A DNA stretch of 23,022 bases, from the IMG/VR virus record IMGVR_UViG_2671180821_000008, positions 1 to 23,022 of that record; one strand, 5' to 3'. The notes below the pieces were generated by a model, which saw only the letters and a program-made list of their open reading frames with translations, did not search any database and was not told the DNA's origin. The position numbers were made by a program, and so were the translations under genes. The stretch comes from a virus (lineage: Duplodnaviria > Heunggongvirae > Uroviricota > Caudoviricetes). Shown here piece after piece: positions 8,482 to 10,032 of the stretch (its first letter is position 1; every line of letters begins with the position of its first letter).

Positions 8482-8594
8482 TATTCACCTCTCGCAGCCT
8501 TACTAGACTGGCCCCCTGAATCTCCAGACAACCAGTATCACTTAAATAAGTGATAGTCTTAATACTAGTTTTTAGACTAGTCATTGGAGTACAG

Positions 8595-8960
8595 ATGATT
8601 GATGTCTTAGGGCCGGAGAAACGCAGACGGCGTACCACACAGGAAAAGATCGCAATTGTTCAGCAGAGCTTTGAACCGGGGATGACGGTCTCCCTCGTTG
8701 CCCGGCAACATGGTGTAGCAGCCAGCCAGTTATTTCTCTGGCGTAAGCAATACCAGGAAGGAAGTCTTACTGCTGTGGCCGCCGGAGAACAGGTTGTTCC
8801 TGCCTCTGAACTTGCTGCCGCCATGAAGCAGATTAAAGAACTCCAGCGCCTGCTCGGCAAGAAAACGATGGAAAATGAACTCCTCAAAGAAGCCGTTGAA
8901 TATGGACGGGCAAAAAAGTGGATAGCGCACGCGCCCTTATTGCCCGGGGATGGGGAGTAA
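8595..8960 (+). CDS. insC: IS2 OrfA (InsC)
   Basis: [56 protein letters not shown]...; recognised IS2 InsC. Confidence 0.88.
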
Positions 8961-9823
8961 GCTTAGTCAGCCGTTGTCTCCGGGTGTCGCGTGCGCAGTT
9001 GCACGTCATTCTCAGACGAACCGATGACTGGATGGATGGCCGCCGCAGTCGTCACACTGATGATACGGATGTGCTTCTCCGTATACACCATGTTATCGGA
9101 GAGCTGCCCACGTATGGTTATCGTCGGGTATGGGCGCTGCTTCGCAGACAGGCAGAACTTGATGGTATGCCTGCGATCAATGCCAAACGTGTTTACCGGA
9201 TCATGCGCCAGAATGCGCTGTTGCTTGAGCGAAAACCTGCTGTACCGCCATCGAAACGGGCACATACAGGCAGAGTGGCCGTGAAAGAAAGCAATCAGCG
9301 ATGGTGCTCTGACGGGTTCGAGTTCTGCTGTGATAACGGAGAGAGACTGCGTGTCACGTTCGCGCTGGACTGCTGTGATCGTGAGGCACTGCACTGGGCG
9401 GTGACTACCGGCGGCTTCAACAGTGAAACAGTACAGGACGTCATGCTGGGAGCGGTGGAACGCCGCTTCGGCAACGATCTTCCGTCGTCTCCAGTGGAGT
9501 GGCTGACGGATAATGGTTCATGCTACCGGGCTAATGAAACACGCCAGTTCGCCCGGATGTTGGGACTTGAACCGAAGAACACGGCGGTGCGGAGTCCGGA
9601 GAGTAACGGAATAGCAGAGAGCTTCGTGAAAACGATAAAGCGTGACTACATCAGTATCATGCCCAAACCAGACGGGTTAACGGCAGCAAAGAACCTTGCA
9701 GAGGCGTTCGAGCATTATAACGAATGGCATCCGCATAGTGCGCTGGGTTATCGCTCGCCACGGGAATATCTGCGGCAGCGGGCTTGTAATGGGTTAAGTG
9801 ATAACAGATGTCTGGAAATATAG
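8918..9823 (+). CDS. insD: IS2 OrfB (InsD) transposase catalytic domain
   Basis: 301-aa ORF with DDE-type integrase fold (…WCSDGFEF…DNGSCY…) overlapping insC in the -1 frame. Confidence 0.88.
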
Positions 9824-9834
9824 GGGCAAATCCA

Positions 9835-10032
9835 CTTACGCTTATCTTCTCTTATTTTGAAATACAGATTCGTCAGATAAGTCAGAAGCCCCAGAAGCAG
9901 ACTTCCCAGCACACCAATCGCAGCCCACTGTGATGGACTGACCTGATCCAACCACTGCAAAAACCAGTAGCCGGCACTGCCGGCGGAGGTGCCGTAGGCA
10001 ATGCCTGTTGATATTTTTTCCATCTGATACAT
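9835..10032 (-). pseudogene. S: S21-type pinholin, 3' end displaced by IS2
   Basis: [66 protein letters not shown] with dual-start motif (Met1/Met4); IS2 inserts after codon 66. The last codons AARGE-stop resume at 8498..8482 beyond the IS2 target duplication, abutting the R start. Confidence 0.8.

Follow-up and report, generated by a model that had tools for sequence, protein, structure and literature searches.

A lysis cassette that closely resembles the locus described here is that of bacteriophage 21, which comprises the S68 pinholin and the S71 antiholin, the endolysin R21, Rz and Rz1. When S21-68 was shortened from its C-terminus one residue at a time, pore formation was unimpaired as far as K56 (K59 when counted in S71), and pores were still obtained with S21-56 carrying oligomeric proteins fused to its C-terminus (bioRxiv 10.1101/2021.04.20.440580). 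Endolysins of the SAR type, when expressed, can lyse the cell without a holin (PMC7312051), and because they can act holin-free, loss of S alone need not abolish lysis in an intact phage. Related cassettes (essD-rrrD-rzpD, DLP12-like) are found in E. coli, stranded in defective lambdoid prophages.

The insertion sequence concerned, IS2, is characterized by imperfect inverted repeats (41 and 42 bp), overlapping orfA and orfB, and an A6G programmed -1 frameshift window (PMC3299598). Shigella genomes are rich in ISs, which produce pseudogenes and rearrangements (PMC8072062). The classical polar IS2 insertion is galEP3, at the start of the gal operon, where the element lies between promoter-proximal sequence and the downstream operon genes. 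The target duplication typical of IS2 is 5 bp in size. In lambdoid phages, Q-modified RNA polymerase reads through terminators, and antiterminated polymerase classically overcomes IS2 polarity.

The cassette analysed here lies in a 23,022-nt stretch of viral DNA (hereafter the window; Table 1). It shares with phage 21 the gene order, an S stop codon that overlaps the R start codon, the two start methionines of S and the embedded Rz1, but differs in that the holin gene is broken after codon 66, in that no Q gene or late promoter lies nearby, and in that a DedA/VTT-domain gene stands downstream of the cassette at the place held by bor in phage 21. Uninterrupted homologues are named in RefSeq 'essD: class II holin family protein' and 'rrrD: lysozyme RrrD'; the E. 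coli essD copies examined were all uninterrupted, whereas in Shigella sonnei IS2 interrupts the gene and ISEc20 lies beside it. The sequence comparisons reported below indicate that the carrier is a lambdoid prophage in the S. sonnei chromosome and that the insertion is common in this species. The reading favoured here, to which we give a probability of about 0.88, is that IS2 genuinely transposed into the 3' end of the pinholin gene, and that this was one neutral step in the IS-driven decay of a cryptic S. sonnei prophage.

Table 1. Features of the lysis cassette and of the neighbouring elements in the window. L001 is the uninterrupted prophage locus of E. coli FDAARGOS_944.
Feature	Position	Strand	Remarks
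Rz i-spanin, 156 aa	7517-7987	-	PF03245; four amino-acid differences from FDAARGOS_944
Rz1 o-spanin	7561-7767		Embedded in Rz, another reading frame; PF06085
SAR endolysin, R21/RrrD type, 165 aa	7984-8481	-	ORF intact; PF00959, E 1.1e-43
Displaced native holin end	8481-8498	-	GCT GCG AGA GGT GAA TAA, codons 67-71 (AARGE) and stop
Target-site duplication, left copy CTTAC	8499-8503		L001 6200-6204; single copy in the uninterrupted allele
IS2	8504-9834	+	Left inverted repeat ~8504-8545, right inverted repeat ~9794-9834
IS2 orfA	8595-8960	+	
IS2 A6G frameshift window	8912-8918	+	Intact
IS2 orfB	8918-9823	+	NF006918 'IS2 transposase TnpB', 727.6 bits (cutoff 597)
Target-site duplication, right copy CTTAC	9835-9839		On the minus strand, last two bases of holin codon R65 and whole codon K66
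Fusion ORF S'::IS2	9748-10032	-	94 aa, 66 native and 28 IS-encoded residues; TAA at 9750-9748
Native holin codons 1-66	9835-10032	-	Dual starts M1/M4, both transmembrane domains, proximal charged tail to ...KIREDKRK
ISEc20-type IS110-family element	10043-11492	+	Within a G-run, 10 bp ahead of the holin ATG; boundaries ambiguous by up to 4 nt
ISEc20 transposase gene	10270-11466	+	NF033542, 239 bits; RefSeq 'IS110-like element ISEc20 family transposase'
Native sequence once directly upstream of holin	11493-12032	-	L001 6404-6942; now cut off from S by ISEc20
Strong intrinsic terminator	11553-11527	-	10 stem pairs and a T-run
IS911-type IS3-family element	12033-13279	+	At the break of synteny with the intact prophage

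The preliminary description of this DNA had placed a 1331-bp IS2 after holin codon 66 with a perfect CTTAC duplication, and this is borne out: a script confirmed a complete element of exactly 1331 bp at 8504-9834, between two CTTAC pentamers. The left end, following the CTTAC at 8499-8503, reads TAGACTGGCCCCCTGAATCTCC, while the right end reads GGGGCAAATCCA and is followed by the CTTAC at 9835-9839; comparison of the ends revealed the conserved blocks GCCCC, TCCAGACA and TATCACTTAA in both. The element thus displays the features expected of IS2 (IS3 family), namely a full length of ~1.33 kb, orfA and orfB with the A6G motif, and imperfect repeats together with a 5-bp duplication. Its transposase is oriented opposite to the lysis genes. 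K-12 IS2A (NC_000913.3 381260-382590) has the same 1331 bp, the A6G motif and the imperfect terminal inverted repeats; the present copy differs from it at 5 of 1331 bases (99.6% nucleotide identity; IS positions 32, 87, 274, 606 and 900) and in its insertion site, and the OrfA and OrfB proteins are identical. Since the IS2 features of PMC3299598 are present, the copy is complete and, judging from its intact ORFs and ends, presumably transposition-competent. IS2 transposes via a circular intermediate, and by its integration at CTTAC these five bases became duplicated.

The uninterrupted prophage of E. coli FDAARGOS_944 provides the empty site. Window positions 2300-8503 correspond to L001 1-6204 and positions 9835-10042 to L001 6200-6407, the overlap between the two L001 segments being the exact 5-bp duplication, and the holin part of the window (9835-10042) is 100% identical to L001 6200-6407. 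In-silico removal of IS2 and one CTTAC, by which 8503 was joined to 9840, yielded a 71-aa ORF ending in ...EDKRKAARGE. The comparison with an uninterrupted allele, which the preliminary description had proposed as a check, confirms the insertion: once IS2 and one CTTAC are taken out, the sequence is exactly the FDAARGOS_944 allele, an agreement well beyond chance. The reconstructed empty site was present at a coverage of at least 80% in 2,486 of the 5,426 complete E. coli genomes, with best matches 99.8% identical, FDAARGOS_944 providing the best of them, and the intact 71-aa holin is a very common allele among diverse lambdoid prophages.

With megablast, 160-bp queries for both IS2 junctions were spanned in 0 of the 5,426 complete E. 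coli genomes, and a 4.3-kb query against complete E. coli genomes returned separate IS or holin matches only. An exact search with the 40-nt left junction gave 0 hits among species-representative genomes, a collection in which Shigella is probably without a genome of its own. The IS2-holin junction was found in hundreds of S. sonnei assembly records, closed chromosomes included, and positions 1-20024 of the window are 99.995% identical to AMKI01000039.1. The probability that the junction is an assembly artefact, with IS2 reads misplaced in the holin gene, is extremely low: identical junctions and the 5-bp duplication recur in independent NCBI and Logan assemblies, including chromosomes >4.7 Mb, the element is full-length, and when it is removed together with one CTTAC, exactly the intact allele is recovered. 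What can be brought forward for an artefact is a draft contig, CXFC01000326.1 (L003), which looks chimeric, S::IS2 passing there, at a point within IS2, into a second S-R copy that is intact.

The disrupted gene was called a pinholin in the preliminary description, and this identity is well founded. The fusion ORF matched the Pfam family PF04971 ('Bacteriophage P21 holin S'; E 1.7e-34), its residues 5-66 corresponding to profile positions 1-62 of 64, and in an alignment with phage 21 S the restored holin showed 92% identity and kept the methionines M1 and M4. No NCBIfam model matched the holin, and the class was assigned from Pfam. The assignment of the gene to the S21-type pinholins is justified by this close homology. 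An intact representative has a complete ORF with its own tail, directly before a SAR endolysin gene; here 28 IS2-encoded codons stand in for the final 5, R lies 1.3 kb away, and the gene is a disrupted member of the S21-type class II holin family. Its N-terminal extension is MYQ, which keeps both Met codons but is without the basic residue, a lysine, of phage 21's MKS; because of this missing basic residue, the antiholin function of the M1-start product is uncertain.

Read on the minus strand from its ATG at 10032, the holin frame passes K66 (AAG, within the right-hand CTTAC) into the right end of IS2, so that, as previously noted, IS-encoded residues stand in place of the native tail end, 28 of them replacing residues 67-71. 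The displaced segment encoding AARGE and the stop codon, previously placed at 8498-8482, is indeed present, but its true end is one base further, at 8481, where it overlaps the endolysin start: the final A of the holin TAA also opens the endolysin ATG (8481-8479; TAATG). The IS2-encoded tail has a net charge of +5 and is without a hydrophobic stretch of membrane-spanning length.

The published S21-68 data indicate that the five replaced residues (67-71) would be dispensable for pore formation, and inactivation of the holin through its altered tail is unlikely. The longer, more basic cytoplasmic tail would probably still permit pinhole formation. This 28-residue, +5 tail differs from the truncations tested, and the triggering time or the stability of the protein could change. 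The earlier suggestion that lysis is altered or abolished by way of the holin tail is thus doubtful, as both truncations of S21-68 and C-terminal fusions are tolerated.

A second consequence concerns the downstream genes, and here the sequence bears out the earlier statement that S is split from R-Rz-Rz1 by 1.3 kb of IS2. The insertion moved the codons for the five terminal holin residues, together with the stop codon and the ribosome-binding site of the endolysin, 1.3 kb downstream, and the translational coupling of S and R would have been lost, the TAATG overlap having been parted from the S frame. After the stop codon of the fusion ORF, ~1.25 kb of antisense IS2 RNA would be left untranslated before R, with a C/G ratio of 1.05-1.5 per 150-nt block. 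Judging from this C/G bias alone, such C-over-G-rich untranslated RNA between S' and R may favour Rho-dependent polarity. As in galEP3, IS2 is located between promoter-proximal sequence and downstream operon genes; the operon here, however, is without a promoter, so that polarity would not be the limiting defect, and the likeness disregards the orientation of IS2.

The endolysin itself is well preserved, with 93% identity to phage 21 R and with E35, D44, T50 and the Gly/Ala-rich N-terminal SAR segment conserved; we take these three residues to be the catalytic ones. Its Shine-Dalgarno sequence, GAGGT at 8491-8487, assigned by analogy to the site annotated for phage 21 R, lies inside the displaced 18 nt, and since it is contained in the displaced holin end, R retains its own ribosome-binding site. 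Three endolysin substitutions (P41L, D127Y and R136C) occur in neither phage 21 R nor FDAARGOS_944 and are for that reason regarded as derived. Over the shared 6.2 kb, 8 of the 15 substitutions relative to FDAARGOS_944 fall in R and Rz, and all of these change an amino acid.

These observations bear on the alternative that IS2 was the primary lesion, which altered or abolished the lysis of an otherwise functional, inducible prophage, all other damage being later. Although strong polarity is known for IS2 and the S stop codon no longer overlaps the start of R in the S frame, this alternative is unlikely: the replaced residues belong to the dispensable part of S21-68, R has its own ribosome-binding site, SAR endolysins, when expressed, can lyse holin-free, and Q-modified polymerase would blunt the polarity of IS2.

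The condition of the rest of the prophage is also at odds with a functional, inducible lambdoid phage, in which a Q antiterminator and pR' would govern the late operon, the morphogenesis genes would be intact and the early and late regions collinear. Relative to FDAARGOS_944, whose portal gene and Q-tRNA-S region are intact, the portal-like gene (3137-4603) carries the nonsense codons W59* and Q126*. The element at 12033-13279, which we take from its OrfA sequence to be IS911, stands where FDAARGOS_944 has 374 bp with three or four phage tRNA genes, and neither a tRNA gene nor a Q-like gene was found in the whole window. The YbcO gene and the 3' part of the DUF1367 gene are likewise absent, and the early region (13696-21301) lies in inverted orientation with respect to the late genes. 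At least 8 IS copies or fragments are present in the 23-kb window, which, besides the elements of Table 1, also holds three IS600-like copies or fragments, IS1 and an integrase fragment. This state agrees with what is described for Shigella genomes in general (PMC8072062). An Rfam scan of the window detected only sok, and nothing at the holin/IS2 locus.

A consensus scan, which can miss real promoters, detected no sigma-70-like promoter on the minus strand from the lysis genes to ~11760. The native terminator and ISEc20 both stand between S and any transcription from upstream. An IS-borne promoter driving R-Rz was considered and dropped, as the promoter scan gave no outward candidate from the left end of IS2 or from ISEc20. 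From the lack of a nearby promoter or Q-like gene, the second IS upstream of S, the nonsense codons of the portal gene and the inversion of the early region, we infer that the lysis cassette is a silent remnant, for several independent reasons. The programmed lysis of the lysogen, which the preliminary description regarded as being at stake, is consequently moot.

The order of events can be read from the S. sonnei chromosome HE616528.1 (4,988,504 bp; presumably strain 53G). This chromosome is collinear through cI, cro and further genes to DUF1367, YbcO, the Q-like gene, IS911, S::IS2, R and Rz, its Q-like gene being a DUF1133 gene with a weak antitermQ match. The IS110-family element upstream of S is absent there, and the fusion ORF has a 111-aa form which reads in from uninterrupted native upstream sequence. 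Because HE616528.1 has S::IS2 in collinear order and is without ISEc20, the IS2 insertion is judged from these arrangements to be older than both the ISEc20 insertion and the inversion/deletion seen in the window. The preliminary description had called the insertion simple and recent; it is simple, but 'recent' can stand only in the sense that the duplication is perfect, given that the event predates ISEc20 and the inversion and that S. sonnei chromosomes of different structure have the junction in common.

The same chromosome also bears on IS2 as the primary lesion. The Q-like gene, with ~260 bp of the sequence that follows it, keeps its collinearity with S::IS2-R-Rz there, without ISEc20, which puts IS2 among the older lesions, as this alternative would have it. 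Against it, gene calling splits the portal of HE616528.1 into three pieces as well, and between its Q-like gene and S the chromosome already shows IS911 and the tRNA loss. The genomes examined have all three lesions in common (IS2, the nonsense codons of the portal gene and IS911), and none of them has IS2 as its sole defect. According to the favoured reading of neutral decay, IS2 would have inserted early in S. sonnei, and would have been followed by the ISEc20 insertion and by an IS-bounded inversion/deletion that took the Q-like antiterminator and the late-promoter region. The portal nonsense codons, the IS911-linked tRNA loss and the endolysin missense changes would add to this decay, in which IS2 would not be a lysis-controlling switch.

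The fusion ORF has entered public databases as a protein in its own right. The 94-aa form is deposited as CST44356.1, 'lysis protein S [Shigella sonnei]', and several short draft contigs that match the window at 100% identity encode the exact 94-aa protein; the form starting at M4 (91 aa) is indexed in 234 assembly-collection blocks, 18 of them with contigs >1 Mb. Another alternative is selection, in which the host gained from a disarmed or detuned lysis cassette (domestication), or the extended holin was retained to serve the host. In its favour, many S. sonnei assemblies carry the fusion ORF intact and without any difference, and the pinholin core is untouched. Such conservation nevertheless means little among S. 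sonnei copies of the region that are at least 99.9% identical; other S. sonnei assemblies show later events in the right end of IS2 as well as truncated variants of the fusion ORF, ISEc20 later cut the ORF off from upstream transcription, and the amino-acid changes accumulating in R and Rz form a pattern that fits neutral decay. Selection of the insertion is accordingly extremely unlikely.

A more specific proposal would be that the tail-extended pinholin is still made at a low level and depolarises the membrane uncoupled from the endolysin, the IS2 insertion having been favoured for disarming lysis while keeping the pore. This is highly improbable; if true, the tail-extended pinholin would be a domesticated or toxic small membrane protein.

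With the insertion and its fusion ORF already in public databases, the finding is an ordinary one, the routine IS decay of a cryptic prophage. The locus is a clean textbook example of stepwise IS-driven prophage decay; it has little significance beyond annotation and raises no new biological question. It should be annotated as an IS2-disrupted holin pseudogene in a defective S. sonnei prophage. The database entries for 'lysis protein S' of 91, 94 and 111 aa are IS2 fusion artefacts of this pseudogene. The nested events, with IS2 first, then ISEc20 and the inversion, then the events inside the right end of IS2 in other assemblies, may be of use as structural markers of S. sonnei lineages.

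At least eight insertion sequence copies or fragments were found within 23 kb, among them IS2, ISEc20, IS911, a partial IS1 and three IS600-like elements, of which two are full and one is truncated. The ISEc20-type element, a member of the RNA-guided IS110 family, is inserted in a run of G residues 10 bp upstream of the holin start codon, with ends uncertain by up to 4 nt. Since no such element is present at this site in the S. sonnei chromosome HE616528.1, its insertion is a later, lineage-specific event. Where the window carries the IS911-type element, the intact prophage of E. 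coli FDAARGOS_944 has a 374-bp stretch in which three to four tRNA genes of the phage lie (Gly, Thr, Arg and a partial Ile gene). This loss was also found in HE616528.1, and no tRNA genes were detected in the whole window.

Compared with HE616528.1 and E. coli FDAARGOS_944, the window carries an early region that is inverted with respect to the late genes; IS600-like copies form its boundaries. Neither the YbcO gene nor the Q-like gene (DUF1133) was present in the window. Rfam gave a single match across the window, the sok antitoxin RNA, which adjoins a hok-family ORF; the nin region of the prophage thus possesses a hok/sok module.

Features of the window, with positions and strands.
Feature	Position	Strand	Remarks
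IS-related segments and integrase fragment	1-700; 13274-13987; 15658-16922; 21302-22571; 22540-23022
IS1, partial	window start
Portal-like gene (DUF1073 / Phage_portal_3)	3137-4603	minus
DedA / VTT-domain membrane protein gene	6916-7428	plus	opposite strand, between Rz and terminase genes
R and Rz	7517-8481	minus
Holin start (MYQMEK)	10021-10032	minus
ISEc20-type element	10043-11492		divergent from holin gene
IS911-type element	12033-13279		8255-9501 in locus L012; replaces 6943-7316 of L001, the FDAARGOS_944 locus
Early region	13696-21301		cI-like, cro-like and ydaV-like genes, QueH, hok/sok, truncated DUF1367 gene
sok antitoxin RNA	20094-20269	plus	Rfam, 117 bits
hok-family ORF	20207-20419		adjoins sok
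Integrase C-terminal fragment			abuts last IS600 copy

Relative to FDAARGOS_944, the portal-like gene contained two nonsense mutations (W59* and Q126*), and in other S. sonnei chromosomes it was likewise called as three fragments. The endolysin (R) and i-spanin (Rz) genes held 8 of the 15 substitutions that separate the window from FDAARGOS_944 across 6.2 kb, all eight of them changing an amino acid. Those in R (P41L, D127Y and R136C) are also derived when phage 21 is taken as the reference, and Rz showed four changes relative to FDAARGOS_944. Such clustering suggests relaxed selection on R and Rz or, alternatively, a recombination patch. At the other end of the cassette, the holin belongs to a common allele starting with MYQMEK, whereas that of phage 21 starts with MKSMDK. 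As the N-terminal extension specific to the antiholin has no basic residue in this allele, the antiholin mechanism based on dual starts may operate differently from that of phage 21.

Variants of the fusion ORF formed by the holin gene and IS2 (S::IS2) were found in other S. sonnei assemblies (proteins P0004, P0006, P0009-P0011 and P0015), with the sequences …[19 protein letters not shown] and …SRHLFEVYWQ. Their divergence starts 10-11 residues into the IS2-encoded part, which implies later insertions or deletions within the IS2 right end. On the draft contig CXFC01000326.1, which has no ISEc20 upstream of S::IS2, an internal position of IS2 links the fusion to another S-R copy, which is uninterrupted (98-99% identical). 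Although this contig is probably a chimeric assembly, it indicates that the genome also contains a paralogous cassette that is intact.

The DedA / VTT-domain gene is probably prophage cargo, as it occupies the position held by bor in phage 21; the FDAARGOS_944 copy was identical to that of the window.
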